Virus genome (UHGV): UHGV-1669857
Length of the DNA: 14,281 nt
Source: a virus
Strand: one strand, 5' to 3'
The notes beneath the pieces were generated by a model. It had not been told where the DNA came from. It ran no database searches and worked only from the letters and a program-made list of their open reading frames with translations. Positions within the stretch are counted from its first letter, which is position 1. Each line of letters starts with the position of its first letter. Of this stretch, positions 1 through 14,281 are shown in pieces. A program made the translations under genes and the position numbers.

Positions 1-157
1 CAGAATAGCGCTGAGGTCTGCCTCGTGAAGAAGGTGTTGCTGACTCATACCAGGCCTGAATAGCTTCATCATCCAGCCAGAAAGTTATGGAGCCACGGTT
101 GATGAGGGCTTTATTGTAGGTGGGCCAGTTGGTGATTTTGAACTTTTGCTTTGCCAC
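1..157 (-). CDS. IS903-family transposase, N-terminal fragment; continues beyond the window start. Start codon uncertain (GTG at 155-157 or TTG at 200-202).
   Basis: Minus-strand translation reads ...(V/M)AKQKFKITNWPTYNKALINRGSITFWLDDEAIQAWYESATPSSRGRPQRYS with no stop before position 1. It is not in the ORF track because it is truncated by the window edge. Confidence 0.7.
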   Translation of the reverse strand, partial: MAKQKFKITNWPTYNKALINRGSITFWLDDEAIQAWYESATPSSRGRPQRYS

Positions 158-234
158 GGAACGGTCTGCGTTGTCGGGAAGATACGTGATCTGATCCTTC
201 AACTCAGCAAAAGTTCGATTTATTCAACAAAGCC
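1..234 (-). mobile_element. Left end of an IS903-family (IS5 family) insertion sequence; the element body lies to the left of the window. Terminal inverted repeat at 217-234.
   Basis: Reverse complement of 217-234 is GGCTTTGTTGAATAAATC, which I recognise as the IS903 terminal inverted repeat. The adjacent minus-strand reading frame encodes a transposase N-terminus. Confidence 0.85.
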
Positions 235-261
235 CCTCCAGTGCTCCAGATATTGAATGGC

Positions 262-864
262 CTATGCCTCCGGCAGTTCAGGCCAGATGACATCCGGCGC
301 GGTGCTGGTATCTGTTGCCACCACCGCGTCAATGTAATCCAGCACAGCGTTAAGTCTGGTTGTTTCTTCCTGCGTAAGTTTACGTCCGGCCTGTAATTTC
401 AGCTGAATCAGACCGACGGAATTCATTGCTGCATCAATCAGTGACTGGCGTTGGATTTCTGCCGCGTCCACTGCGGCGCTACATTGTGCCTCAGTATCCG
501 TCACCCATTTCTCACCATCCCATTTATCGTATGGTGTTAACGGGGCGATAGTGGTTGTATTTTCGGGGTAATCACCCAGAGATGTGATTTCTTTCGATTC
601 TCCTGTTTCGGTGCTATAGACCGTTTCACCGCGATGGTCTGACACATATTCCCATGAGTTTAAATCTACCGTTCGGCAGATTGCATAACCAGCTTTGTTT
701 GAGCCAGGAGCATCTAAACAGGAATGCGCCGGAATACCGACACCCACAGCAAGATACTCAGTTGATGTGGAAATATATTCCCGCGTTTCTCCGTTGTAGT
801 TATAAACGGTAATGAAGCCGGGTTCCGTGGCAATAAATTCACTGTTTAATTTTACCTGTGTCAT
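262..864 (-). CDS. G: Tail fibre assembly protein (chaperone), P2 gpG-like
   Basis: 200-aa ORF directly downstream of the tail fibre gene with a 1-nt start/stop overlap. C-terminus ...VIWPELPEA is typical of Tfa-family chaperones. Confidence 0.85.
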   Translation of the reverse strand: MTQVKLNSEFIATEPGFITVYNYNGETREYISTSTEYLAVGVGIPAHSCLDAPGSNKAGYAICRTVDLNSWEYVSDHRGETVYSTETGESKEITSLGDYPENTTTIAPLTPYDKWDGEKWVTDTEAQCSAAVDAAEIQRQSLIDAAMNSVGLIQLKLQAGRKLTQEETTRLNAVLDYIDAVVATDTSTAPDVIWPELPEA

Positions 865-2102
865 TATGCAGCCCTCACAATGTAGTTAAATGCAATGTTG
901 CGGGGGCGCGTTTCATTTCCGCCGGTGTCGCCGGTATCTCTGCCTGCATTACCGGAATAGTCGTATACAGCGCCAGTCCCTCCCCCTGCGGCATAGCCTG
1001 TAAAAAACGTAAATGAGTGGTGGTGCGCTTTAAATAAATCGGACTGCGCCGAGAGAAGCGCGCGCCCTGCATCCACCCCGCGCCCATCATCCCATCCACG
1101 AATAAACTCACCGCGTAAATCAGGTAATTTATTTGTTGGATAAGCCTTTGCCAGTTCCGGGTATTCTTCAGCAGAAAATGCCGCACCATTGCATTTCAGC
1201 CAGCCTGTTGGAGGAGTGGCTGAAGGCCACGGAACAGGTACACCAACGGGTAACGCTGAGCCTTCTCCCAAACCAAGGTATGTGAGAAGACCAGCTACAT
1301 CCTTTCCACTCAAATGAGTCAGCGTATTGTCCAGCGGTTGTTTACCTGCCAGCGCATTGTTAATGGTGGTACTGAATTTCGGGTCATTGTTAATGGCTGC
1401 GGCAATTTCTTTCAGTGTATCCAGCGTGGCAGGCGCACCGTTAATCAGAGCGGTAATAGCAGCCTGTACAAACGCAGTGGTCGCAATCCGCGTGGTGTTA
1501 TTTCCTGCGGCAGGCGTCGGCGCTTTTGGTTCTCCGGTAAATGTCGGATTATGTTTCTGTGCATACTGGGTATGAGGATCCTGTGCGGCAATGTGGTTTC
1601 TCATCTGTTCATCCACATACAGCCTTAATTCCAGGACTTCATCATCCACGTATTTACGGGTCGCCAGTACCACCGATGGGTCGATTTTCAGCGTAATAGC
1701 TTCGGTATTCGTGACAACCAGAATCATGCGGATAGTCTGGGTACGACCACTGCCTTCCTGCAACTGCGGTTTGTACGTTTCCGGGCAGTTCGCCACCGCA
1801 ATGAGTACGCCTTCATCATCATAAAGCCCAATCTCACGGATCCAGAATCCGCCCTCGTTCTCAGGGATGATTTGCTCCGCAATAATCTGGCTCTGGTTGT
1901 TCGGGTCAACACTCAGAAGATTCAGCGGTGCAATGCGTTTCTGATTAATCAGTTTTGTCTGTGCCGGGTCTGGTGTCGGCAAGACACCATTCGCATCACC
2001 AACGGCCATTTGCGTCAGATTCAGCTTACTGCCGAGCATCGTCGCGTTAGCCAGCCGTGCCGCGCCCTGATTAGTCAGAATGGCGTAGTATTTCACTGTC
2101 AT
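864..2102 (-). CDS. H: Tail fibre protein, P2 gpH-like N-terminus with a tail-collar type C-terminal domain; short form (412 aa)
   Basis: N-terminus MTVKYYAILTNQGAARLANA... matches the conserved baseplate-attachment region of P2 H as I recall it. The C-terminal region (PWPSATPPTGWLKCNG...PDLRGEFIRGWDDGRG...KAHHHSF...NYIVRAA) resembles the phage tail collar domain. Confidence 0.85.
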   Translation of the reverse strand: MTVKYYAILTNQGAARLANATMLGSKLNLTQMAVGDANGVLPTPDPAQTKLINQKRIAPLNLLSVDPNNQSQIIAEQIIPENEGGFWIREIGLYDDEGVLIAVANCPETYKPQLQEGSGRTQTIRMILVVTNTEAITLKIDPSVVLATRKYVDDEVLELRLYVDEQMRNHIAAQDPHTQYAQKHNPTFTGEPKAPTPAAGNNTTRIATTAFVQAAITALINGAPATLDTLKEIAAAINNDPKFSTTINNALAGKQPLDNTLTHLSGKDVAGLLTYLGLGEGSALPVGVPVPWPSATPPTGWLKCNGAAFSAEEYPELAKAYPTNKLPDLRGEFIRGWDDGRGVDAGRALLSAQSDLFKAHHHSFTFFTGYAAGGGTGAVYDYSGNAGRDTGDTGGNETRPRNIAFNYIVRAA

Positions 2103-2710
2103 GCGTTTACTCTCAGGTTATCAATTAAATGAATGGCCGAGGCCGGGAAATAATCCCCTCCGACAATAATGGCCTCCGGGGTGTAGGGATAAACCGTCAG
2201 GGCGTCGCCGTGATAGCATCCCGCACCGGCAAAAATGTTGCCGGTTGTACTTAAACTGATAGCCAGTCCCGTCAGATGGCGGCTTGCCGGTTTTGCATCA
2301 GCAACGAGGCGCTCCAGCTCCTGATACATTTCCTCGGTAATACCCTGCTCAAGCACGCCAACAACGATGCGGAACGTCCCCGGCTCCTCGTTGAGCTGCC
2401 ACCACTCCCTCACCTCAATCAGATAGCCGAGCGGCTCCACCACACGCCGGATTGCGCCTATAGTGCCCTTATGGCAGTGAATGAAATACGCATCGCGGAT
2501 AACAGCGCGTTTTGTCGCTTCCGGCCACTTATCATCCCAGCGGTCAACCGAAAATGACCACGCCAGCCACGGCAGCAGATTTGCCGGGCAGGTGTCCGGG
2601 TTCCACAGCTTACGAATACTGACCGGCGTTTTTTCAATTTCCGCACAGGCTTTTGCGGCAGCGACTTCAAGCGGTGATGAGCCGGTCGGCAGCAGTCGCG
2701 AATCACTCAT
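2099..2710 (-). CDS. I: Baseplate assembly protein I (P2 gpI-like)
   Basis: Position between J and H. The start may be over-extended: the ORF is 203 aa against roughly 176 aa recalled for P2 I. Confidence 0.8.
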   Translation of the reverse strand: MSDSRLLPTGSSPLEVAAAKACAEIEKTPVSIRKLWNPDTCPANLLPWLAWSFSVDRWDDKWPEATKRAVIRDAYFIHCHKGTIGAIRRVVEPLGYLIEVREWWQLNEEPGTFRIVVGVLEQGITEEMYQELERLVADAKPASRHLTGLAISLSTTGNIFAGAGCYHGDALTVYPYTPEAIIVGGDYFPASAIHLIDNLRVNA

Positions 2711-3611
2711 CCGAGCCTCCGGTCACGACGCTGTATTCGGTACAGAAAGACGCCTGCGTATTGTTGAGCACGATGTCGGCCAGCGGTGCAGCCAGTTCGA
2801 CACGCTGCACGCCTTCCACATGCAAAGCGGCATAAATGGCAGACAGTCGGATGTCGCGCCCCAGCCGGTGCTGTGCCGTGATATACGCTTCCAGTTTTTT
2901 CACGGCGGCAGCGCGAATGGGTTCGCTTTCGGGGCCAGGATAAAGGTAAAGCGTGGCATTTATCTGGTATTCAACGATGACGGCAGACTGCACGGTCACA
3001 CGGTCGGCCACCGGTCTGACGTCCTCACCATTAAGGGCGTTGCGCACCACCGCCAGCAGGTCTTCGGATGCCACACCGTTATTTTCACGTGACAGCACAG
3101 AGATGGTGACGCAGGCCGGAGACGGACTGGTGACAGAAATATCCGCGACACGCCCGTCGGCACTGCGACCATGATACTGATAGGCTCCCACCGACCCGGC
3201 GACGCTTAAGCCCTCAAACGCCTGCTGAATACGCAGACGATAATCGGTGTCAGACTCCATCACTGCCGGTGTCGGCGGGATGGTCGAATCATCTGCCGGG
3301 GTGATAATCAGGCGCGTGGTGTTGTAATTGGCACCAATCACATCAAGGTCATTACCGGCGGCACAGGCCAGCATTACCGCCCGTGCGGCCTCATTCACAC
3401 GCTGACGCCAGATAAGCTCACGATAAGCATTTTCCTCCAGCAGTTTGACGAGAGGCTCGGATTCCAGCGTCAGGGTACGGGCAACCGCCTCCTGCTGGTC
3501 TTCCGGGTAAAGGGAAATCAGTGTCGCCTTGCGTTCGGCAAGAATGGTTTCAAAGTCCAGCTCCTCGACCACATCCGGTGCGGGTAGCTGGTTCAGGTCG
3601 ATAATCGGCAT
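2703..3611 (-). CDS. J: Baseplate assembly protein J (P2 gpJ-like)
   Basis: 302 aa, same length as P2 J; sits in the W-J-I order; 8-nt overlap with I. Confidence 0.9.
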   Translation of the reverse strand: MPIIDLNQLPAPDVVEELDFETILAERKATLISLYPEDQQEAVARTLTLESEPLVKLLEENAYRELIWRQRVNEAARAVMLACAAGNDLDVIGANYNTTRLIITPADDSTIPPTPAVMESDTDYRLRIQQAFEGLSVAGSVGAYQYHGRSADGRVADISVTSPSPACVTISVLSRENNGVASEDLLAVVRNALNGEDVRPVADRVTVQSAVIVEYQINATLYLYPGPESEPIRAAAVKKLEAYITAQHRLGRDIRLSAIYAALHVEGVQRVELAAPLADIVLNNTQASFCTEYSVVTGGSDE

Positions 3612-3615
3612 GGTT

Positions 3616-3963
3616 TCAACTCACAGGGATGGTTAACGAAAGTGGCTGGCCGGTGTCGCTGTGCTGGCCGGTTAACGTGACCGTCATTCGCCCGTCAAAA
3701 CTGCGCTCAGTGGTGACGGATGACAGGGTGACGCGGGGTTCCCATTTCAGCACCGCCATGTAACAGGCGACCTTAATCTGCAACTCAAGCGCCGGGGTCT
3801 GCGGCTGGTCAATCATTGACGCCAGCAATGAGCCGTAATCACGACGCATCACCCGTGAGCCGACCGGCGTGCGCAGGATATCGCCGATACTCTGGCTGAT
3901 ATGCTCAAGGTCAGTGACAGTCAGGCCATCACTGCGATTCATTCCAAGATAACGCGCTGTCAT
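3616..3963 (-). CDS. W: Baseplate wedge protein W (gp25-like)
   Basis: 115 aa, between V and J; 4-nt overlap with V. Confidence 0.9.
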   Translation of the reverse strand: MTARYLGMNRSDGLTVTDLEHISQSIGDILRTPVGSRVMRRDYGSLLASMIDQPQTPALELQIKVACYMAVLKWEPRVTLSSVTTERSFDGRMTVTLTGQHSDTGQPLSLTIPVS

Positions 3964-4595
3964 AGAGGACTCCCGGTTGTGCCGCCGCTGTCGCCGGGGT
4001 GTTTATGGGTATGCAGTACCTTACCGTTTGATGAGAGTTCACCGCCGGTATGTTTAATGTTGCCGCGCATCGTCCCGCCCTTCTGCACTTCCAGCGTGCC
4101 GGTAATCAGTCTGTTGGTGCAGACCACCTCCGGGGTGTCCAGGGTGATGCGGGTTGACGCTTTCACCATGACCACCGGCACCGTGGCAGTAACAGAATCA
4201 GAAGCCGTCACGCTGGCCGTTTTAATTCCGCTTACCGTGAGTGCACTGGTTTCGGGTTCATACTCAATCACCGCCCCGTCAGGGAAACGGATATGCAGGG
4301 CATCCGCCGACGTAGACGGCGCGGGGTTATCGCCGGAATAAATCCCCGGCAGAACGAACGCCGTGTCGAGTTCACCGCCCACGGCCAGAATCAGCACCTG
4401 TTCCCCCACGGAAGGTGCCCACCATGTGCGCGAACGTCCGGCGCGATGGGTCAGCCACTGAAGCCAGTCGGTGCACATGCCGCCGGTCTGCACACGGCAG
4501 CGACCGGCGTTAAGGTCGGTTTCGACGATAATGCCGGTGCGGATCATGTTGCGCAGTGCGCGCGCGAGTTCCTGAATATTTGCGAGAGTGTTCAT
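3960..4595 (-). CDS. V: Baseplate central spike protein V
   Basis: 211 aa, same length as P2 V; Gly/Thr/His-rich C-terminal apex ...HTHKHPGDSGGTTGSPL. The Shine-Dalgarno sequence is weak. Confidence 0.9.
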   Translation of the reverse strand: MNTLANIQELARALRNMIRTGIIVETDLNAGRCRVQTGGMCTDWLQWLTHRAGRSRTWWAPSVGEQVLILAVGGELDTAFVLPGIYSGDNPAPSTSADALHIRFPDGAVIEYEPETSALTVSGIKTASVTASDSVTATVPVVMVKASTRITLDTPEVVCTNRLITGTLEVQKGGTMRGNIKHTGGELSSNGKVLHTHKHPGDSGGTTGSPL

Positions 4596-4661
4596 AACGG
4601 GAAGGATGCCGCCGGGTCATACCGGCGGCAATGTGCCGATGAGGTGTCGGGAATGGCACAA

Positions 4662-5114
4662 CTAACGGTCGAGGTGAGCCAGGATAATCTCTTCAATCAT
4701 CTGCACATCCTCACCGGTAAAGCCGAGCAGAGGACGCGCCGGATAATCAATTTTCTTACCGTCTTTCCGGTTTTCTTCCGACAGACCGAACTGATGCACA
4801 CTGGCGATTTTCGGCGACTTCCCGCCGTAAAACTCCATTGATGCCTGCTCCGGGCTGGCGCGGATATGCAAAAAACGACTGGTGATAAGTTTCGCAAACA
4901 TTTTTCGCTTAACGCGACCGGTCTTTTTTCTGGCGCTCTGCTGCTGGCGTGGCACGTAGGGTGTGCCGTCCGGGGCTTTCTGTGCCATCACCCGACGCTG
5001 CTGACTCTGCCGCAGACGTTTCGCCAGTTCGGCACTCAGTCGTCGACGCCCTGACGGTGACAGCGACTCAATCAGTCCGGTCAGCCGGTCTTCAAAACGC
5101 TTAAACTCATTCAT
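4662..5114 (-). CDS. S: Tail completion protein S
   Basis: 150 aa; 8-nt overlap with R; P2 gene order. Confidence 0.9.
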   Translation of the reverse strand: MNEFKRFEDRLTGLIESLSPSGRRRLSAELAKRLRQSQQRRVMAQKAPDGTPYVPRQQQSARKKTGRVKRKMFAKLITSRFLHIRASPEQASMEFYGGKSPKIASVHQFGLSEENRKDGKKIDYPARPLLGFTGEDVQMIEEIILAHLDR

Positions 5115-5574
5115 CCCACTTGCTCACCAGTTCGCCATTGATATAAAGCTCCATCGGGCGGGTGACCGGCTCCGGCGGCGTGGGTTCCGGGATATTCTTC
5201 ACATGCAGCGCGCCGTCCACCTCACTGACCAGCGTGCGCTCGGTCAGCATCAGGCTGATGCTGATATCAAAGCTGCTGTCATTGTTGATGTCTGCATAAA
5301 ACGTGAAGCCCTTTTTCTGACCTTCGTCAGTGGTCATGATGTCGGGCTGATTTTCCCGCAGCCACGCCAGCACCGGCACGATGAGCAGGTCAAAATCACC
5401 GGTAAAGTCGGTCACAATCACATTGAGCGTGTAACGCTTTTCGAACGACAGCGACGTCGCCAGCGTGGAGGCAATACTCCCGTTATCCACGAATATCCGA
5501 AGCATCTCTGGACTGGTTTTCAGCACCGTGACGGCATCAGTCAGCGCCCTGCGCAGGCTGTCGGGTTTGAGCAT
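5107..5574 (-). CDS. R: Tail completion protein R
   Basis: 155 aa; directly follows the lysis cassette as in P2. Confidence 0.9.
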   Translation of the reverse strand: MLKPDSLRRALTDAVTVLKTSPEMLRIFVDNGSIASTLATSLSFEKRYTLNVIVTDFTGDFDLLIVPVLAWLRENQPDIMTTDEGQKKGFTFYADINNDSSFDISISLMLTERTLVSEVDGALHVKNIPEPTPPEPVTRPMELYINGELVSKWDE

Positions 5575-5827
5575 CGTTTTCGTCCTGACAGTGTTTAATC
5601 ATTTTTACCTGGCTGGCACAGCGTGCCAGCGCGTTCTCAAGCTGCCGGATATCAGCACTTAAATCGCCGTTCGTCTCCGGGTCACTGCCCGGCATCGGGC
5701 AAAGGCTCACTTTCGGGCAGGCGTTGGCGACAATCACTGGCGTCGGTGCAGGCCGGGCGCTGGTGCAACCGGCGCACAGCATCAGGCAGGTCAGCACCGT
5801 ACCAGCGGCGAAAATCTTCGTTTTCAT
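5537..5827 (-). CDS. lysC: LysC, outer-membrane lipoprotein spanin (Rz1-like), nested out of frame in the 3' part of lysB and running into R
   Basis: N-terminus MKTKIFAAGTVLTCLMLCAGC carries a signal peptide and an LCAGC lipobox. The ORF is embedded in lysB in another frame, which is the P2 arrangement. Confidence 0.75.
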   Translation of the reverse strand: MKTKIFAAGTVLTCLMLCAGCTSARPAPTPVIVANACPKVSLCPMPGSDPETNGDLSADIRQLENALARCASQVKMIKHCQDENDAQTRQPAQGAD

Positions 5828-6107
5828 TCAGTAACCTCGTGATGGTTTTCTCGCGCTGTGCTTCACGCTTCGCGGCGTTTTCCAGCTCCTGACGCAGTGC
5901 CACCTGCGCCAGCTCGTTTTTGTCTGCCCTGGTGAGGGCAACATGAAGCTGATTTTTCAGCATGGTGATGGTCGTCTGCTGCCCGCTGGCGACGTTATTC
6001 GCCCTGTCCAGCGAGGCGCGCAGGCTGGCATTTTTGTGTTTCACCAGAAACAGACCGGACACCGCCAGCGATAACAACACGACCAGCACAATCATCAGCT
6101 TTGACAT
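5682..6107 (-). CDS. lysB: LysB, inner-membrane spanin (Rz-like)
   Basis: 141 aa with an N-terminal transmembrane helix (MSKLMIVLVVLLSLAVSGLFLV) followed by a charged, probably coiled-coil region. Confidence 0.85.
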   Translation of the reverse strand: MSKLMIVLVVLLSLAVSGLFLVKHKNASLRASLDRANNVASGQQTTITMLKNQLHVALTRADKNELAQVALRQELENAAKREAQREKTITRLLNENEDFRRWYGADLPDAVRRLHQRPACTDASDCRQRLPESEPLPDAGQ

Positions 6108-6520
6108 GGTTCCCGCCCCTCAAAACGCTGACGGCAGGCCGTGCGTATCAGCCGGAAAAACAGTGACGCCACGAGATAAATCAGCGCGGTAAAAATCCAT
6201 CCGGCGGCGACCAGCGAGATAAATGTCGCCACCATCACCACCAGAGCCGCCGCCCGTCTGCGCCACGGCACCGGCTGCAAAAACAGCGACGTGACAATCT
6301 TCACGGCCAGCGATTCCGGCGGCAGCTCCCGCCCGTAGCGTTCCAGCACATACTCCGTGGCATACACGCCGACACCACCGGCAACCACACAGATAACCGT
6401 CGCCAGAATCGCCCAGGCAGCGACAAAACTGACGGCCACGCTCTGCGGGTAAATCAGGGACAGTGCCAGCATCAGCGCCAGCGACACGTTCAGCATCAGT
6501 GAAAGGGATAATTTCTTCAT
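6095..6520 (-). CDS. lysA: LysA, multi-pass membrane lysis-timing protein (putative antiholin)
   Basis: 141 aa, strongly hydrophobic with several predicted transmembrane segments; located between K and lysB. Confidence 0.85.
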   Translation of the reverse strand: MKKLSLSLMLNVSLALMLALSLIYPQSVAVSFVAAWAILATVICVVAGGVGVYATEYVLERYGRELPPESLAVKIVTSLFLQPVPWRRRAAALVVMVATFISLVAAGWIFTALIYLVASLFFRLIRTACRQRFEGREPCQS

Positions 6521-6534
6521 GGTGTTTACTCCGT

Positions 6535-7032
6535 TTAAGCCGGTACGCCGCCAGCGGTACGCCAGACGGTGACCAGTTTTTCCAGTGAATGCTCACGCTG
6601 ACCGTAACCGGCACCCGGCAGGGACGCCCAGATATTGCGACAGCGTGAAATGGCGCGCTCAATGCGTCCCGCCCGGATGTCATCCAGTGCACCGCGTTCG
6701 CGGATCAACTGAATGGCAAGTCTGTCCTGTGACAACGGACTGAAATCCGGCAGGGCAAGCTGTTTGCGGTAATGCGGCCAGAACAGGTAAAGCTGCTGAT
6801 AGCGACCGGAGGCCGTGGATTTTTCACCGCGACGGTTAAACACCTTCGCCGGTCGGCCATGTGCGAACGGGTGGTCACTGTAGTCGGTGAAAATTTCCGG
6901 CTTCCCGTCCAGTCCGGTGACTATCACGTCATAGCCCCGGTTTTTCGTCAGCGGATGGTTTGCCGTCCCTTCGGACACGGCCAGCATGTCGAGAAAGGCG
7001 GCGATATTCTGATGCGTGTTAATAACCGGCAT
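6535..7032 (-). CDS. K: Endolysin (lysozyme-like murein hydrolase), P2 gpK-like
   Basis: 165 aa; immediately downstream of holin Y with a 1-nt overlap. Confidence 0.9.
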   Translation of the reverse strand: MPVINTHQNIAAFLDMLAVSEGTANHPLTKNRGYDVIVTGLDGKPEIFTDYSDHPFAHGRPAKVFNRRGEKSTASGRYQQLYLFWPHYRKQLALPDFSPLSQDRLAIQLIRERGALDDIRAGRIERAISRCRNIWASLPGAGYGQREHSLEKLVTVWRTAGGVPA

Positions 7033-7313
7033 TACGGTTTCCCCCTGCCCTTAAAGCGGCGCTGAATGGCAATCTCAATCACCTGATAACCGGCGATACC
7101 CAGCATGGAGCCGATACCGCACACCGCAGGCAGTGACAGGTCAGGAAACTGCACCAGAACAACACCGGCAACCATCGAGACAAAACCACCGAGCAACATG
7201 CGCCCGATAAACAGACGCGGGGTGATGGGTTCACCACCGGCAAGCACCTTGCCGACAACAATCAGCACCCCAATCATGAAAAGCGACAGGACGCTTTTTT
7301 CTTCTGCTGTCAT
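7032..7313 (-). CDS. Y: Holin, P2 gpY-like
   Basis: 93 aa small membrane protein with hydrophobic helices and a charged C-terminus (RRFKGRGKP). Confidence 0.9.
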   Translation of the reverse strand: MTAEEKSVLSLFMIGVLIVVGKVLAGGEPITPRLFIGRMLLGGFVSMVAGVVLVQFPDLSLPAVCGIGSMLGIAGYQVIEIAIQRRFKGRGKP

Positions 7314-7316
7314 GCG

Positions 7317-7520
7317 TTACTCCCACAGATTGACAGTTTCAGCCACGGGCGCGGTCTGAACGTCGGGCAGTTCGACGGCGGTGCCGTGTGGCAGCACCGC
7401 ACCCAGTTCAGCCAGTCCCGGATTTGCGGCGAGCACGGTCTCAACCACGCCCTCAGTGCGCCCGTAATACCGGACACAAATGGCGTCGAGCGTGTCGCCC
7501 TGTAGCGCAAAGGTCTTCAT
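7317..7520 (-). CDS. X: Tail protein X (LysM-like)
   Basis: The track ORF (7317-7589) is over-extended. The internal ATG at 7518-7520 (MKTFALQGDTLDAICVRYYG...) gives 67 aa and forms an ATGA overlap with the stop of L. Confidence 0.85.
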   Translation of the reverse strand: MKTFALQGDTLDAICVRYYGRTEGVVETVLAANPGLAELGAVLPHGTAVELPDVQTAPVAETVNLWE

Positions 7521-8029
7521 CAGATTTGACTCACGATGCAGCGCGGCTTGTCCTGGATGCGCGCCACTGCCCAGCGCATATCCCGCCACAGCTCATCAAT
7601 GGTGCTGTCAATGCTGTCGGCCTTCTTGTCGCCTTTCGCACTGGCATCCACACCGCGATAACGTTCATAAAGCGACGCGGTCGCCATCGCACACACGGCG
7701 CGCTCGTAGTAAAAAACTTTGATGCTTTCACCGTCGATGTCGTCCGCCGGGACGTCCGCCAGACGCGTAAAACCGGCGGCAATTTTCTGTTCGCGGTACT
7801 CGTACAGCTCCGCATTCGTCTCCGCCATGCCTGACTTGATGGCCTCACGCAGACGGGCGGGGGCGACGGTCTGCTCAAGGCGCATACGTTCCCGGACGCG
7901 CTTCGGGTCGATATCGGGAAAAAAGAACGTGTTTTTAATCACCGGCTCGTCGCCTGCCGGTTGCGGGATGACCACCGTACCCTCACCGGACACGGGAGCC
8001 TCCTTTCGCGGAATAATCAGCGTCATCAT
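7520..8029 (-). CDS. L: Head completion/stabilisation protein L
   Basis: The track ORF is over-extended. The start at 8027-8029 (MMTLIIPRKEAP...) is preceded by GAGG 8 nt upstream and gives 169 aa, the P2 L length. Confidence 0.9.
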   Translation of the reverse strand: MMTLIIPRKEAPVSGEGTVVIPQPAGDEPVIKNTFFFPDIDPKRVRERMRLEQTVAPARLREAIKSGMAETNAELYEYREQKIAAGFTRLADVPADDIDGESIKVFYYERAVCAMATASLYERYRGVDASAKGDKKADSIDSTIDELWRDMRWAVARIQDKPRCIVSQI

Positions 8030-8128
8030 GACTACCTCTGAAAAGTCGGGCGGTGGACGCCGGTGCAGTGTCAGGTGATTCACCCTCACTGACCGGCGTG
8101 CCGCCCTGGCGCGGGGCGCATTCGGTTG

Positions 8129-8866
8129 TTAACTGGCTTTCTTTTTCGGGCGTCCACGTTTTGCCGGGGGCGCACTCCGGGTCTTACGCGGGGCGCGGGT
8201 GACCGCTTTTGGCTCCGGCTTCGGTTTCAGCTCCCGCTCCAGTCGTTCAATCTCTTTTTTGACGCCTGCCTGACAGTCGAGCTGTGTCGCACGTTGCAGA
8301 TGCGCCAGCGCCCCTGCGGCATCACCAGCGTCACGCAGAAACAGACCGGTGATTTTGTGCAGCTTTGCGCGCACTTCATCAGGCATGTCAGCCGTGGCGG
8401 TCAGTTCAAGGGTCTCCGTCAGCAGGCGGGTATCCACAGACTCACCGGCAGCGTGAGCGCGCATGGCCGCAAGCGCGACCTCCTCGGTGAACATGTACGG
8501 CGGGGTACGGCGGTGTTTACCCGGCATGGTCAGACCGTACTTCAGGGCATAACGGGCAATCTCCAGCGCACCGGCAATATCGCCGGTATCCAGACGCCAC
8601 AGCATGACCGTCATCAGAATGTCATCCTGTGCACCTTTGCCCTGCTCCAGCACGCCGTTCACCCACGACAACCAGAACGGCAGCAGTTCGCGTTTTTTCG
8701 CGGCCTTCAGCTCTTTTGAATAAATCGCTTTCAGTGTGCGCTGGTCTGCGGCGAGCTTAACCAGCATCTGCTCATAGACAGTTGCATGTCGCAGCGGGGC
8801 GGCTTCCCGCTGCGCGGTCATCGCTGCCGAGACCCGCATCATGTGGCGCTGTGCGGGACTCGTCAT
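8129..8866 (-). CDS. M: Terminase small (endonuclease) subunit M
   Basis: 245 aa with a basic Lys/Arg/Pro-rich C-terminal tail; sits between N and L. Confidence 0.9.
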   Translation of the reverse strand: MTSPAQRHMMRVSAAMTAQREAAPLRHATVYEQMLVKLAADQRTLKAIYSKELKAAKKRELLPFWLSWVNGVLEQGKGAQDDILMTVMLWRLDTGDIAGALEIARYALKYGLTMPGKHRRTPPYMFTEEVALAAMRAHAAGESVDTRLLTETLELTATADMPDEVRAKLHKITGLFLRDAGDAAGALAHLQRATQLDCQAGVKKEIERLERELKPKPEPKAVTRAPRKTRSAPPAKRGRPKKKAS

Positions 8867-8869
8867 CGG

Positions 8870-9943
8870 TTACGCTCCCGGCTCTGCGGTCGCTTTAGCC
8901 AGTGTGGAGAAATCACCGACCTTAATTTTTTCCACCAGACAACCGGCGGCGTAGTCTTCCACCACGTAATCAATGTTCATTGACTCGTAGTTCTCCACGC
9001 GGTCGAGTTTCGGGTTTTCCTCAATCACGCGGCGATGGCTGTCATCCATGTAGTAGATGGACAGGTTTTCCAGCTTTGTGATGAGCATCGCATCCGCCGG
9101 GAAGTACGGGACGCGTACCGCCGGCAGGTTACCGATGCGTTTCTGGCTGATGATGACGTCAGCGGCCAGCATTTCGCTGTTGTCCTGCTCCTTGTTGACG
9201 ATGGGAAAATACTTGTCCGCCAGTAGCTGACGTCCCACAATCACCACAAGGTCAGGGTCTTCCTGATACCACGGCTCAATCAGGTTGTTGGTCGCATCCA
9301 TCACCAGTGCGTCAAGGCTGGCATAATCACCGCCCTTACCCACGCGGATAACCTCAGAGGTGGTGTGCCCTTCCTCGTCAGTGACCTTGCTCATCACGCG
9401 CGCCGGTGCTTCATTGCGGTATTTCTGCAGCCAGCCGACCGCCACATCCTGTAGCATCGGATTACTGCTGCGGTCAGAGGTTTCGGCACGCCTCACGCCG
9501 TTAAAACCGGCCATGATGAAATCAAGGGACTGGCGTTTGATAATGGCGTTACGGACACGGAGCTGGAAATCCTGATAACGCGCCCACAGGTCAAGCGTTT
9601 TGTAGCGGATATAAAAATCGAAGTTAATCTGGTCGCATTCGTACTTGTTTGACGCCAGCTTCGAGAAGTCCTTCGGCTGACGCTCGGTGCCACCGGCGGT
9701 GTCGCTGGTGCTGGCGATGGAGCCGGTGACACCAATACCAATTTTTTCCCCTTTCATTTCGCTGACCGGCACAATGTTGATGCGGGTCAGAAAGTCAGAG
9801 GACTCCTGCATGGTGTTCATCAGGGTCTGGGTGACCGACGGTTCAACGGTGAATTTTTTCGACACATCACCGGCGTCGATGCCGTTCAGTTCGGCAACAC
9901 GGGACAGGTAGGCATTAAATTTAAAGCGGGTTTCCTGGCGCAT
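8870..9943 (-). CDS. N: Major capsid protein N
   Basis: 357 aa, the P2 N length as I recall it; order O-N-M. Confidence 0.95.
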   Translation of the reverse strand: MRQETRFKFNAYLSRVAELNGIDAGDVSKKFTVEPSVTQTLMNTMQESSDFLTRINIVPVSEMKGEKIGIGVTGSIASTSDTAGGTERQPKDFSKLASNKYECDQINFDFYIRYKTLDLWARYQDFQLRVRNAIIKRQSLDFIMAGFNGVRRAETSDRSSNPMLQDVAVGWLQKYRNEAPARVMSKVTDEEGHTTSEVIRVGKGGDYASLDALVMDATNNLIEPWYQEDPDLVVIVGRQLLADKYFPIVNKEQDNSEMLAADVIISQKRIGNLPAVRVPYFPADAMLITKLENLSIYYMDDSHRRVIEENPKLDRVENYESMNIDYVVEDYAAGCLVEKIKVGDFSTLAKATAEPGA

Positions 9944-10001
9944 AGTTTTTCCTGAAATTAAGGGTTAATCGTGAAGGTTTTCCCGGACTGACTGACGCCG
10001 G

Positions 10002-10856
10002 TTAGCAGTTCGTCATCAGGGCGTCACCGCCACCGCCGGTGGCTTTACTGCGGCGCTGCTGGGTCAGACTTTCGGTGTGGTCGAGACTGTTTTTCAGGCG
10101 GGTGAATGCCTGACTGGTTTCATCCGCCCTGTCAGTCACATCCTGCTTAAGTGCGGAAAAGGCGGTTTCCATCTCAGCAAGGCGCTGCTCAGTGGCGCTC
10201 AGTTTTTCCTGCACATGCTCAGCGACAGCGGTCACCGCTTCATGCACGTCATTCAGACGGGCGTCATCGCTGGCCTGTTTGCGGCCAAAAATGGATTTCA
10301 CCTTTTCGGTCAGGGCTGTGAACACGGTTTCAGGCAGGTCTTCAAATTCCAGCTCAACAGGCGTTGCCACTGAAATCAGGTTTTCAGGGCTTAATTTGAA
10401 GCGGTTCAGGGGGTTGTGTTTTGCCGTGCGGCAGAATTCCAGGTATTCCGTGCCGAGGCTTGCCGGGTCATCGGTGACGGCCAGACCCACCAGATAACAT
10501 TTGCCGGTATTGGCAAAGTTCGGCTGAATTTCCATTGAGGTATAGACCTTCTGCGCGGCCTTGTTCATCGCGATAAGGTCATCGGTCGGGGTGATTTTCG
10601 CAAACAGCGCCCATTTGCCTTTCAGCGCCGAATCGTCGTCAATCTTTTCGGCCTTCAGTTCGGCCACATCACCATAACGTTTAAAAATACCGTCAGGCAG
10701 GATGCCGCGCAGATGTTCCAGGTTAATGCGGCAACCATAGACTCGCGGGTCAAAGGTTTCGGCCATTTCCTGAATATCCTGCGCACTGATGACACGCCCG
10801 TCACAGGTGTCACCCTCAACGCCGATACGAAAGAATTTTGAGACTTTTTTTGCCAT
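10002..10856 (-). CDS. O: Capsid scaffolding protein O
   Basis: The track ORF (to 10922) is over-extended. The ATG at 10854-10856 (MAKKVSKFFRIGVEG...) gives 284 aa with AGGA upstream. Confidence 0.9.
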   Translation of the reverse strand: MAKKVSKFFRIGVEGDTCDGRVISAQDIQEMAETFDPRVYGCRINLEHLRGILPDGIFKRYGDVAELKAEKIDDDSALKGKWALFAKITPTDDLIAMNKAAQKVYTSMEIQPNFANTGKCYLVGLAVTDDPASLGTEYLEFCRTAKHNPLNRFKLSPENLISVATPVELEFEDLPETVFTALTEKVKSIFGRKQASDDARLNDVHEAVTAVAEHVQEKLSATEQRLAEMETAFSALKQDVTDRADETSQAFTRLKNSLDHTESLTQQRRSKATGGGGDALMTNC

Positions 10857-11029
10857 TGTCAGGAGTCCTGAATAGTGATTAGAGGAGTCACATGTCGGCA
10901 TCAGTTTCCCGACGATGCGCATCCTCCGCCATCAGTCCCGGATGGCTTATCACTGACACAACAGCACCTTAGCGAATCGCGGGGCGCGACTAAGTAGCCT
11001 TGCCGTGTATTCATCACGGCGAGGTATTC
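10857..11029. promoter_or_regulatory. Divergent late-promoter region (leftward for the O operon, rightward for P-Q), expected to be Ogr-type activator dependent
   Basis: 173-bp non-coding spacer between divergently transcribed O and P, corresponding to the known P2 late-promoter location. I did not find an exact TGT-N12-ACA activator dyad by eye. Confidence 0.5.
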
Positions 11030-12802
11030 ATGACCATCACCACAGACACCACTCTTTTACACGACCCGCGTCGTCAGGCGGCGCTGCTGTACTGGCAGGG
11101 GTTTTCCGTGCCGCAGATTGCCGCCATGTTGAAGATGAAACGCCCGACGGTGCAGAGCTGGAAACAGCGCGACGGCTGGGACAGTGTTGCCCCCATCAGC
11201 CGTGTCGAAATGAGTCTGGAAGCGCGGCTGACCCAGCTCATCATCAAACCGCAGAAAACCGGCGGTGACTTCAAGGAAATTGACCTGCTGGGACGCCAGA
11301 TTGAACGACTGGCACGGGTTAACCGTTACAGTCAGACCGGCAACGAGGCAGACCTTAATCCGAACGTCGCTAACCGCAACAAAGGCGGGCGGCGCAAACC
11401 GAAAAAGAATTTTTTCAGTGACGAGGCCATCGAAAAGCTGGAGCAGATTTTCTTTGAGCAGTCTTTCGAATATCAGTTGCACTGGTATCGCGCCGGGCTT
11501 GAGCACCGCATCCGCGATATCCTGAAATCCCGCCAGATTGGCGCGACGTTTTATTTTTCCCGCGAGGCGCTGCTGCGCGCCCTGAAAACCGGCCATAACC
11601 AGATTTTTCTGTCGGCCAGTAAAACGCAGGCGTATGTGTTCCGTGAATACATCATCGCCTTTGCCCGTCTGGTTGACGTTGACCTGACCGGTGACCCGAT
11701 TGTCCTGGGCAATAACGGCGCAAAACTGATTTTTCTCGGCACCAACTCCAATACCGCGCAGAGCCATAACGGCGACCTGTACGTCGACGAGATTTTCTGG
11801 ATCCCGAATTTTCAGGTACTGCGTAAGGTGGCATCAGGTATGGCCTCACAGAGCCACCTGCGCTCGACCTATTTCTCCACCCCGTCCACGCTGGCGCACG
11901 ACGCCTACCCGTTCTGGTCGGGTGAACTGTTCAACCGGGGACGCGCCAGCGCCGCCGAACGCGTGGAAATCGACGTCAGTCATAACGCCCTTGCCGGAGG
12001 TCTTCTCTGTGCGGACGGCCAGTGGCGACAGATTGTCACCATTGAGGACGCCCTGAAAGGCGGCTGCACGCTGTTCGACATTGAGCAGCTCAAACGCGAA
12101 AACAGCGCCGACGATTTTAAAAACCTGTTCATGTGTGAATTTGTTGACGACAAGGCGTCGGTGTTCCCGTTCGAGGAGCTGCAACGCTGCATGGTCGACA
12201 CGCTGGAAGAATGGGAAGACTATGCGCCGTTTGCCGCCAATCCGTTCGGCTCCCGCCCGGTATGGATTGGTTACGACCCGTCACACCGTGGCGACAGCGC
12301 CGGATGCGTGGTGCTGGCACCGCCGGTGGTGGCCGGAGGTAAATTCAGAATACTTGAGCGTCACCAGTGGAAAGGCATGGACTTTGCCACTCAGGCGGAA
12401 TCCATCCGCAAACTCACCGAAAAATACAACGTCGAATACATCGGAATTGATGCCACCGGCCTCGGTGTCGGCGTGTTCCAGCTCGTGCGCTCGTTCTATC
12501 CCGCCGCGCGCGACATCCGCTACACGCCGGAAATGAAAACCGCAATGGTGCTCAAGGCCAAAGACGTTATCCGCCGTGGCTGTCTGGAATATGACGTCAG
12601 CGCCACCGACATCACCAGCTCGTTTATGGCTATCCGCAAGACCATGACCAGCAGCGGACGCAGTGCCACCTATGAGGCCAGCCGCAGCGAGGAAGCCAGC
12701 CACGCCGACCTCGCCTGGGCGACCATGCACGCCCTGTTAAATGAGCCACTCACCGCCGGTATCAGCACCCCGCTGACATCCACCATTCTGGAGTTTTACT
12801 GA
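11030..12802 (+). CDS. P: Terminase large (ATPase) subunit P
   Basis: The track ORF begins at a TTG at 11000. The real start is the ATG at 11030 (MTITTDTTLLHDPRRQ...) with GAGG 6 nt upstream, giving 590 aa. Confidence 0.95.
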   Translation: MTITTDTTLLHDPRRQAALLYWQGFSVPQIAAMLKMKRPTVQSWKQRDGWDSVAPISRVEMSLEARLTQLIIKPQKTGGDFKEIDLLGRQIERLARVNRYSQTGNEADLNPNVANRNKGGRRKPKKNFFSDEAIEKLEQIFFEQSFEYQLHWYRAGLEHRIRDILKSRQIGATFYFSREALLRALKTGHNQIFLSASKTQAYVFREYIIAFARLVDVDLTGDPIVLGNNGAKLIFLGTNSNTAQSHNGDLYVDEIFWIPNFQVLRKVASGMASQSHLRSTYFSTPSTLAHDAYPFWSGELFNRGRASAAERVEIDVSHNALAGGLLCADGQWRQIVTIEDALKGGCTLFDIEQLKRENSADDFKNLFMCEFVDDKASVFPFEELQRCMVDTLEEWEDYAPFAANPFGSRPVWIGYDPSHRGDSAGCVVLAPPVVAGGKFRILERHQWKGMDFATQAESIRKLTEKYNVEYIGIDATGLGVGVFQLVRSFYPAARDIRYTPEMKTAMVLKAKDVIRRGCLEYDVSATDITSSFMAIRKTMTSSGRSATYEASRSEEASHADLAWATMHALLNEPLTAGISTPLTSTILEFY

Positions 12803-13836
12803 TGAGCAAGAAAAAAGGGAAAACACCGCAACCTGCGGCCAAAAAAATGACCGCCAGCGCCCCGAAAATGGAAGCATTCACCTTTGGCGAGCCGGTACCG
12901 GTACTCGACCGCCGTGACATTCTGGATTACGTCGAGTGCATCAGTAACGGCAGATGGTATGAACCACCGGTCAGCTTTACCGGTCTGGCAAAAAGCCTGC
13001 GTGCTGCCGTGCATCACAGCTCACCGATTTACGTCAAACGTAATATTCTGGCCTCAACATTTATCCCGCATCCGTGGCTTTCCCAGCAGGATTTCAGCCG
13101 CTTTGTGCTGGATTTTCTGGTGTTCGGTAATGCGTTTCTGGAAAAGCGTTACAGCACCACCGGTAAGGTCATCAGACTGGAAACCTCACCGGCAAAATAT
13201 ACCCGTCGTGGCGTGGAGGAGGATGTTTACTGGTGGGTGCCGTCCTTCAACGAGCCGACACCTTTCACGCCCGGCTCCGTGTTTCACCTGCTGGAGCCGG
13301 ATATCAATCAGGAGCTGTACGGCCTGCCAGAATATCTGAGCGCCCTTAACTCTGCCTGGCTGAATGAGTCGGCCACGCTGTTCCGCCGCAAGTATTACGA
13401 AAACGGCGCTCATGCCGGATATATCATGTACGTCACCGATGCCGTGCAGGACCGCAACGATATCGAAATGCTTCGCGAAAACATGGTTAAGTCGAAAGGC
13501 CGCAACAACTTTAAAAATCTGTTTCTCTATGCCCCGCAGGGGAAAGCTGACGGCATTAAAATTATCCCGCTCAGTGAAGTGGCAACGAAGGACGATTTTT
13601 TTAATATCAAAAAAGCCAGCGCCGCTGACCTGCTGGACGCGCACCGCATCCCCTTTCAGTTGATGGGCGGCAAGCCGGAGAACGTCGGGTCACTGGGCGA
13701 TATTGAGAAAGTGGCAAAGGTCTTTGTCCGCAATGAGCTTATCCCGTTACAGGACAGGATTCGGGAAATAAACGGCTGGCTCGGTCAGGAGGTCATCCGC
13801 TTTAAAAACTACTCACTGGACACTGACAACGGCTGA
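12802..13836 (+). CDS. Q: Portal protein Q
   Basis: 344 aa; ATGA overlap with the stop of P; the gene next to cos, as in P2. Confidence 0.95.
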   Translation: MSKKKGKTPQPAAKKMTASAPKMEAFTFGEPVPVLDRRDILDYVECISNGRWYEPPVSFTGLAKSLRAAVHHSSPIYVKRNILASTFIPHPWLSQQDFSRFVLDFLVFGNAFLEKRYSTTGKVIRLETSPAKYTRRGVEEDVYWWVPSFNEPTPFTPGSVFHLLEPDINQELYGLPEYLSALNSAWLNESATLFRRKYYENGAHAGYIMYVTDAVQDRNDIEMLRENMVKSKGRNNFKNLFLYAPQGKADGIKIIPLSEVATKDDFFNIKKASAADLLDAHRIPFQLMGGKPENVGSLGDIEKVAKVFVRNELIPLQDRIREINGWLGQEVIRFKNYSLDTDNG

Positions 13837-13841
13837 ACATC

Positions 13842-13863
13842 GCCGCCTGCGGGCGGCTTTTTT
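13842..13863 (+). terminator. Rho-independent terminator downstream of Q
   Basis: GCCGCC-TGCG-GGCGGC stem-loop (13842-13857) followed by TTTTTT (13858-13863), 6 nt after the Q stop codon. Confidence 0.8.
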
Positions 13864-14005
13864 ACACCCCGTCATCACGCCCTCACACGCTCACCACAGC
13901 ACAAAACATCCCGCAAACACACCAACACCCCAACGGGCAGACTAAACGCCGCCACGACGCGCTCAGACGCTGAAAAAATAAAATCAGCACCACCGCCAGC
14001 GCGCA

Positions 14006-14024
14006 GTGCTTTCCCCGCCTCGCC
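14006..14024. other. P2-type cos site: 19-nt cohesive-end sequence
   Basis: Plus strand GTGCTTTCCCCGCCTCGCC, whose reverse complement GGCGAGGCGGGGAAAGCAC is the P2 cohesive end as I recall it; sits about 170 bp beyond Q, as in P2. Confidence 0.8.
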
Positions 14025-14166
14025 CGCCCGCTTCATGGGTCGGTTTGAATGCAGTTGAATTACAACTACCAAACCAAGCAATCCCTACTATTACGCAGAA
14101 AATGCATACTGAAATACCTCGTGCAAATTGATGCAGCTAAGTATGCATAGGTTTTATGCCTCAACG

Positions 14167-14281
14167 GGCTTTGTTGAATAAATCAGATTTCGGGTAAGTC
14201 TCCCCCGTAGCGGGTTGTGTTTTCAGGCAATACGCACGCTTTCAGGCATACCTGCTTTCGTCATTTTGTTCAGCGCTCGTA
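14167..14281 (-). mobile_element. End of a second IS903-family insertion sequence (the end nearest the transposase C-terminus); element body lies to the right of the window. Terminal inverted repeat at 14167-14184.
   Basis: Plus strand 14167-14184 is GGCTTTGTTGAATAAATC, the same inverted repeat as at 217-234 in opposite orientation. The minus strand encodes a transposase C-terminus. Confidence 0.85.
14223..14281 (-). CDS. IS903-family transposase, C-terminal fragment; enters from beyond the window end
   Basis: Minus-strand translation ...RALNKMTKAGMPESVRIA then stop at 14223-14225, matching the IS903 transposase C-terminus as I recall it. Confidence 0.7.
   Translation of the reverse strand, partial: RALNKMTKAGMPESVRIA

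Follow-up and report, generated by a model that had tools for sequence, protein, structure and literature searches.

The window, by which we mean the whole stretch of 14,281 nt analysed here (virus genome UHGV-1669857), covers the late genes of a P2-like prophage from cos and Q to G, in reverse reading direction. With a probability of roughly 0.8, it derives from a P2-like prophage with a tail-fibre switch of the Gin/Cin/Pin type in which IS903B has entered the tfa' gene, leaving G and the expressed fibre tip untouched and the alternative state of the fibre damaged or lost. Such an insertion is an ordinary event, both the IS and the type of host-range switch that it entered being well known, as are all other components. 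Its main value is to correct the picture of the DNA after G, which in this widespread P2-like lineage holds a fibre inversion switch and not a cargo slot of the Z/fun type; hotspot scans anchored on G and FI will therefore meet invertase cassettes. For this particular prophage, the IS would probably disable or fix the host-range switch.

Insertion site and surrounding fibre genes

The left end of the window is the end of an IS903B element. Bases 1-234 are 100% identical (234/234 nt) to complete 1057-bp elements in four E. coli genomes (L001, L010, L011 and L017), and the annotation of the L017 element reads 'IS5-like element IS903B family transposase'. An exact copy of GGCTTTGTTGAATAAATC, the 18-bp terminal repeat of IS903, stands at 217-234 on the minus strand, with 0 occurrences expected by chance. 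The 52 N-terminal residues of the transposase, running from a GTG at 157 down to base 2, match PF13737 (E 1.4e-7), and the complete IS903B copy in L001 matches both PF13737 and PF01609. The preliminary description had the IS903 inverted repeat ending at 234 and G stopping at 262-264, with 27 bp (235-261) in between, and every one of these details holds. IS-free relatives cease aligning at 235-237, which sets the insertion point at 234|235.

Beside an IS903B end in strain 1368KP (L017, 6061-6070), 10 nt CCTCCAGTGC equal the flank seen in the window. This site was rejected as the same locus: IS903B lies there between a truncated tdcC and IS621, without phage context, and no target duplication surrounds that copy. 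The shared CCTCCAGTGC may have arisen by chance or may be left over from recombination between IS copies.

The bases next to the element are coding. Positions 235-290 read (x)cc-SSAPDIEWPMPPAVQAR-stop, i.e. two bases of a codon, 17 codons and TGA, and 25 of the 27 bases in the gap (235-261) are the same as in the tfa' gene of L012. Full-length tfa' encodes 146-147 aa (PF02413) with a C-terminus reading ...DTS(S/G)APDIEWPTPPAVQAR before the stop (4611-5054 in L007, 1786-2226 in L012); it converges on G, overlapping the end of G by 29 nt, and its end sits at the same place relative to G in L007, L008 and L012. From these alignments, tfa' is read as the second, silent-orientation tail-fibre chaperone gene of an invertible segment, and IS903B is placed inside it, 18 codons from its stop, instead of in an intergenic cargo slot. 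The view that the 27 bp are a cargo slot after G does not stand, as 235-261 and 262-290 together form the 3' end of the convergent tfa'.

Table 1. Features of the window (coordinates are those of the window unless another locus is named).
Feature	Position	Strand	Evidence or remark
IS903B, terminal 234 nt, transposase-start end	1..234	minus	exact inverted repeat; 100% identity; PF13737
tfa' 3' stump	235..290	plus	alignment to full-length tfa' of L007, L012 and L008
G, 200-aa tail-fibre assembly chaperone, intact	262..864	minus	Caudo_TAP PF02413, E 4e-31
H, variable distal part with collar domain (exchangeable cassette)	864..1262	minus	PF07484 Collar, residues 287-334
Invertase crossover site, 26 bp	1263..1288	none	one mismatch from the L007 inverted repeat pair
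H, constant N-terminal part (P2-like backbone)	1289..2102	minus	PF12571, residues 1-150
O, N, M, L, X, lysis genes, R, S, V, W, J, I, H, G		minus	
P and Q	11000-13836	plus	
P2 cos 19-mer GGCGAGGCGGGGAAAGCAC	14006..14024	minus	exact match; annotated cosL of NC_001895
IS903B, first 115 nt	14167..14281	minus	exact inverted repeat 14167-14184 (plus); same orientation as left copy
Region shared with L012, strain AHM21C2872I	1289-4600		99.2% to window
Region shared with L013, strain 64.1	1347-4600		99.7% to window
Region shared with L007, phage KC618326	1347-2300		98% to window
IS903B copy in SfV-like prophage L001	7178-8234 of L001		
IS903B copy in SfV-like prophage L010	6178-7234 of L010		
IS903B copy in SfV-like prophage L011	7004-8060 of L011		

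On the other side of the stump, the fibre genes themselves are in order. The stop of H and the start of G overlap at 864, with G directly 3' of H (864-2102) as in P2, the order V-W-J-I-H-G is the same as in P2-like loci, and the features of a gpG-type assembly protein are present; G is the chaperone of the cassette that is expressed. The constant part of H belongs to the P2-like backbone, 1347-2300 being 98-99.4% identical to L007 and L013 and 1063-2300 being 96.4% identical to L012. Between the stop of G and the element, the minus strand shows no terminator-like site, and G and the transposase gene point in the same direction, so that, judged from these features of the sequence, late transcripts would probably read from G into the transposase gene.

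At the junction of the constant and variable parts of H lies a crossover site for an invertase with the sequence TTCTCCCAAACC-AA-GGTATGTGAGAA, which encodes LGLGE. A 12-2-12 dyad with central AA is the layout of the hix, gix, cix and pix sites. The site is present in a single copy in the window (0 expected by chance); a second, inverted one was not found in the window, and the partner would lie past the IS.

In all four sampled P2-like relatives (L007, L012, L013 and the more distant L009), G is followed by convergent tfa', by Hv', a promoterless alternative fibre tip with a gp53-like C domain, by a serine recombinase and then, after 60-155 bp, by FI. Resolvase and HTH_7 domains make up this recombinase, which is Gin-like by its match to the invertase structure PDB 3uj3 (E 6e-94). 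In L007 the invertible segment is flanked by a perfect 31-nt inverted repeat pair (4201-4231 and 6065-6095), one arm of which is within H and the other beside the invertase. L013 expresses the 146-aa tfa' type and keeps the collar-type tip and a 197-aa chaperone silent, being thus in the reverse orientation to the window, L007 and L012; both orientations of the segment exist in nature. Experimental proof of invertible tail-fibre loci has been given for P2-like prophages of EPEC (PMC4272514). Among 5426 E. coli genomes, FI is adjacent to an invertase in 546, and the V-to-H backbone of the window is found in 637.

Neither Z/fun nor any other cargo gene lies between G and FI in any of the four sampled relatives. 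The alignment against related prophages that the preliminary description had proposed therefore shows tfa', the alternative tip and the invertase in four of four P2-like cases, without Z/fun. Occupancy by Z/fun was rejected, and the arrangement of P2 itself is not common to this lineage.

In the intact state, the order would be H-constant, crossover site, Hv, G, convergent tfa' and Hv', second crossover site, serine invertase and FI, and inversion would exchange which pair of tip and chaperone is joined to H. We infer that such a full switch once lay, or still lies, beyond the IS. The current fibre should still be produced because G and the expressed tip are intact, and the alternative state should at least be damaged because the conserved APDIEWP motif at the C-terminus of tfa' has been cut off. 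Should the remainder of the segment be present past the IS, the inverting piece would be about 1 kb longer and its inversion would give a truncated chaperone. If it is gone, the fibre would be locked in one state; the alternative state may be wholly lost where IS-mediated deletion or IS-by-IS recombination took the rest.

Other ISs are frequent in the close relatives. L012 carries ISCro1 inside G (2198-5507), and ISEc12 is found near head genes or the fibre segment in L013 (12941-15243), L019 (1-2095) and L022 (11318-13620). IS decay appears to be common in this prophage lineage.

Both ends of the window and the far side of the element

The right end of the window resembles the left one. The cos 19-mer, which marks the end of the packaged genome, lies 170 bp after the portal gene Q, and a second IS903B end begins 142 bp past cos, on the side of the old/tin hotspot, and fills the window from there on. 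The alignment with IS-free relatives, at 100% identity, breaks off after 14166. The window is consequently bounded by two IS903B ends in direct orientation that bracket the whole 13.9-kb cos-to-G block (235-14166), and their flanks differ (CCTCCAGTG on the left, GCCTCAACG on the right) with no shared duplication. Direct IS903B copies around this block could make the whole late region a unit of recombination or transposition.

Elements of the IS903 group also lie just past cos in other P2-like prophages, namely EC9952 (L019), 23CRST029 and strain 4114 (L022), the last of which has its element adjoining DprA-containing cargo. This suggests that the region just past cos is a recurrent target of the IS903 group. 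A further variable position is seen inside the block: the gap between S and V measures only 66 bp in the window (4596-4661), and some relatives have an extra plus-strand gene there, encoding a DUF2971 protein in L009 (12109-12978) and a hypothetical protein in L019 (7709-8302). The S-V gap may be another small cargo site of P2-like phages.

Both ends of the contig are assembly breaks inside IS903B, a multi-copy repeat of the kind that short-read assembly cannot cross. What the window shows of IS903B is 234 nt at one end and 115 nt at the other, belonging to two copies or possibly to a single one, and the contig is the unique DNA between two IS903B copies or between both ends of one circle-borne copy. 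A single copy on a circle of 14,989 bp may give both contig ends, although the two visible flanks do not form the target duplication of such a copy.

In a less favoured but real possibility, the IS is the end-point of a deletion or rearrangement. Adjacent deletion by IS903B, or recombination between its copies, would have removed everything from tfa' onward (Hv', the invertase and possibly FI to ogr), and 235-14166 would be what remains of a prophage, or a segment bracketed by IS903B, with the fibre frozen in one state. The direct orientation of both IS903B ends with their unlike flanks CCTCCAGTG and GCCTCAACG is consistent with a deletion, and so are L001, L010 and L011, in which the same right junction occurs without target duplication and is joined to an unrelated tfa fragment. 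In addition, the corresponding left junction, tfa'...CCTCCAGTG|IS, is absent from 5426 E. coli genomes, JGI metagenomes and IMG/VR. A synthetic query of tfa' plus IS gave no match covering at least 80% of its length in the 5426 genomes, the predicted junction with a 9-bp duplication had 0 matches in JGI metagenomes or IMG/VR, and no truncated tfa' ending in ...SSGLC occurs among the best 120 of 925 protein homologues, eight of which were fetched and read.

The missing left junction is weak evidence for a deletion, however, as the right junction in a P2-like context is equally missing from these collections. The exact 45-mer of the right junction had 0 matches in IMG/VR or GTDB genomes, and a shorter query in JGI metagenomes returned only an SfV-like contig and no P2-like one. 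Two independent simple insertions would, moreover, yield an identical contig, and simple insertion into tfa' does happen. In L009, an IS5-family element in tfa' is cleanly flanked by the 9-bp duplication TTGCTGAAG, and the locus keeps its invertase and FI. This insertion is independent of that of the window and belongs to another P2-like prophage, and it makes a simple insertion plausible for the window as well.

The exact G protein occurs in four metagenome contigs, with both P2-like prophages and prophages with Mu-like tails represented among their contexts, and none of the four gives sequence from the far side, all ending in or beside the IS. L004, a metagenome scaffold of 14,040 bp assembled independently (ENA ERZ28596799, SAMEA104142363), agrees with the window at 100% identity over 180-2300 and on the side of G contains 55 nt of the IS before it breaks off; its size implies that it does likewise at the other end. 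In a P2-like context, the junction is thus carried by the window and L004, which are metagenome assemblies, and by no complete genome.

The shared junction in SfV-like prophages

An identical junction of IS, 27 bp and G is present in three complete E. coli genomes (DLI.6n, GDSC2239PM and MB30) and in the metagenome contig L003, and in all of these it belongs to prophages with Mu-like baseplate and tail genes. The three genome copies adjoin gtr O-antigen modification genes, two of them beside argW-intS, and no invertase was found in the three genome prophages or in L003. In these genome prophages (L001, L010 and L011) the element has no 9-bp target duplication; its left flank is CTTCATGGC and its right flank CCTCCAGTG. 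The left flank is a C-terminal fragment of the prophage's own chaperone gene, which is intact in the IS-free relative L016. The SfV-like junction is a hybrid of a native chaperone fragment and a foreign tfa' stump.

Homology between the window and these loci runs through IS, stump, G and Hv without a break and ends at 1287, inside the crossover site. Over 180-1287 the identity to L003 is 98.9% (12 differing positions), and over 1-1287 the identity to L001 is 95.2%. In the base-by-base alignment, the variable side of the window clusters with the SfV-like loci that bear the IS and the constant side with the P2-like loci, and the homology switches just after the central AA-GGT of the crossover site. 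The SfV-like fibre genes of L001, L003, L015 and L016 natively carry a crossover-like site, ATCTCCCAAACCAAGGTTTTCGAGAG, with no invertase nearby.

The cassette and its IS junction have evidently passed between phage types. The simplest reading of these alignments is a single insertion of IS903B, into the tfa' gene of a phage that had an invertible segment, and a later exchange of cassette and junction between phage types, one exchange point being at the invertase site and the other in or past the IS. The junction common to two phage types is in this respect a small example of fibre-cassette exchange at an invertase site, of minor evolutionary interest, and opens no new question. One step further, the block of crossover site, Hv, G, tfa' stump and IS903B could be a transferable host-range cassette that moved between P2-like and SfV-like phages, with the common IS acting as portable homology that spreads a frozen half-segment. 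We put this forward tentatively and consider it rather unlikely.

Alternatively, the position might be a target hot spot that IS903B struck twice, once in a P2-like and once in an SfV-like prophage. Insertions of the IS903 group do recur nearby, with another in tfa' (L009) and three just past cos in other P2-like prophages. The SfV-like carriers, however, have neither the remainder of tfa' across the IS nor an invertase. Possession of the stump without the body of tfa' indicates that the stump arrived together with the IS and makes an independent insertion improbable, and the unbroken identity from IS through stump and G to Hv, ending within the crossover site, speaks against it too.

An assembly chimera, in which Hv, G and IS of a co-resident SfV-like prophage were joined to a P2-like H around the crossover site, could be imagined for what is evidently a short-read metagenome contig, given that SfV-like prophages with the exact junction exist and that short contigs from other samples (L005 and L006) are the cassette assembled apart, but it is very unlikely because L004, from another sample, is identical, because the two contexts have about 17-30 bp in common at the site, which is below typical k-mers, and because the cassette has 12 differences to that of the SfV-like contig; P2-like prophages with the same cassette type occur in complete genomes (L007 and L012) as well.

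Likeness to the Z/fun locus and to known fibre switches

The left end of the window can be compared with the locus for which it was first taken. In P2 itself, G is followed by a terminator, by fun(Z) on the opposite strand and then by FI. The preliminary description was right that P2 has fun(Z) after G, and equally in calling the interval between G and FI a variable region of P2-like phages; it is a recognised hotspot, of mixed purpose, that often contains a DNA invertase with inverted neighbour genes (bioRxiv 10.1101/2024.10.15.618418). Both points agree with a Z/fun cargo slot taken by the IS, the cargo (Z/fun or a replacement such as a defence gene) being displaced or deleted. We nevertheless give this reading hardly any weight, as the DNA abutting the IS is the 3' end of tfa' and neither intergenic nor cargo, and as the sampled P2-like relatives hold nothing but the invertible half and the invertase in the interval. 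Compared with the P2 Z/fun hotspot, the map position is equal, whereas at the visible flank of the window both a homologue of fun(Z) and a terminator after G are missing, the end of G is overlapped by a chaperone gene that converges on it, and the interval of the relatives is filled by a switch and its invertase.

The IS itself, as seen in its two ends, has no feature that distinguishes it from known IS903B (IS5 family, IS903 group): the terminal repeat is identical and the N-terminus matches the DDE transposase.

Likeness is also found with the Mu G, P1 C and e14 P segments, which are inverted by members of the Din family (Gin, Cin, Pin and Min). As in these segments, the window has a 26-bp dyad site with central AA in a fibre gene, and a tip and chaperone cassette that is followed by a convergent second chaperone gene. 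A Gin-like serine invertase beside the segment and the occurrence of both orientations are features of the relatives. The window differs in holding half of such a segment only, the second chaperone being severed by the IS 18 codons before its end; the partner site and the invertase are not in the window and may be gone.

Further counterparts are the invertible loci of P2-like phages, described in EPEC E2348/69 (PMC4272514) and present in 'Escherichia phage P2' KC618326 (Peduovirus magyaro). Backbone, gene order and cassette types are equal between these loci and the window, and the crossover site is equal but for one mismatch. The loci of EPEC E2348/69 and KC618326 are intact, whereas that of the window is interrupted by IS903B.
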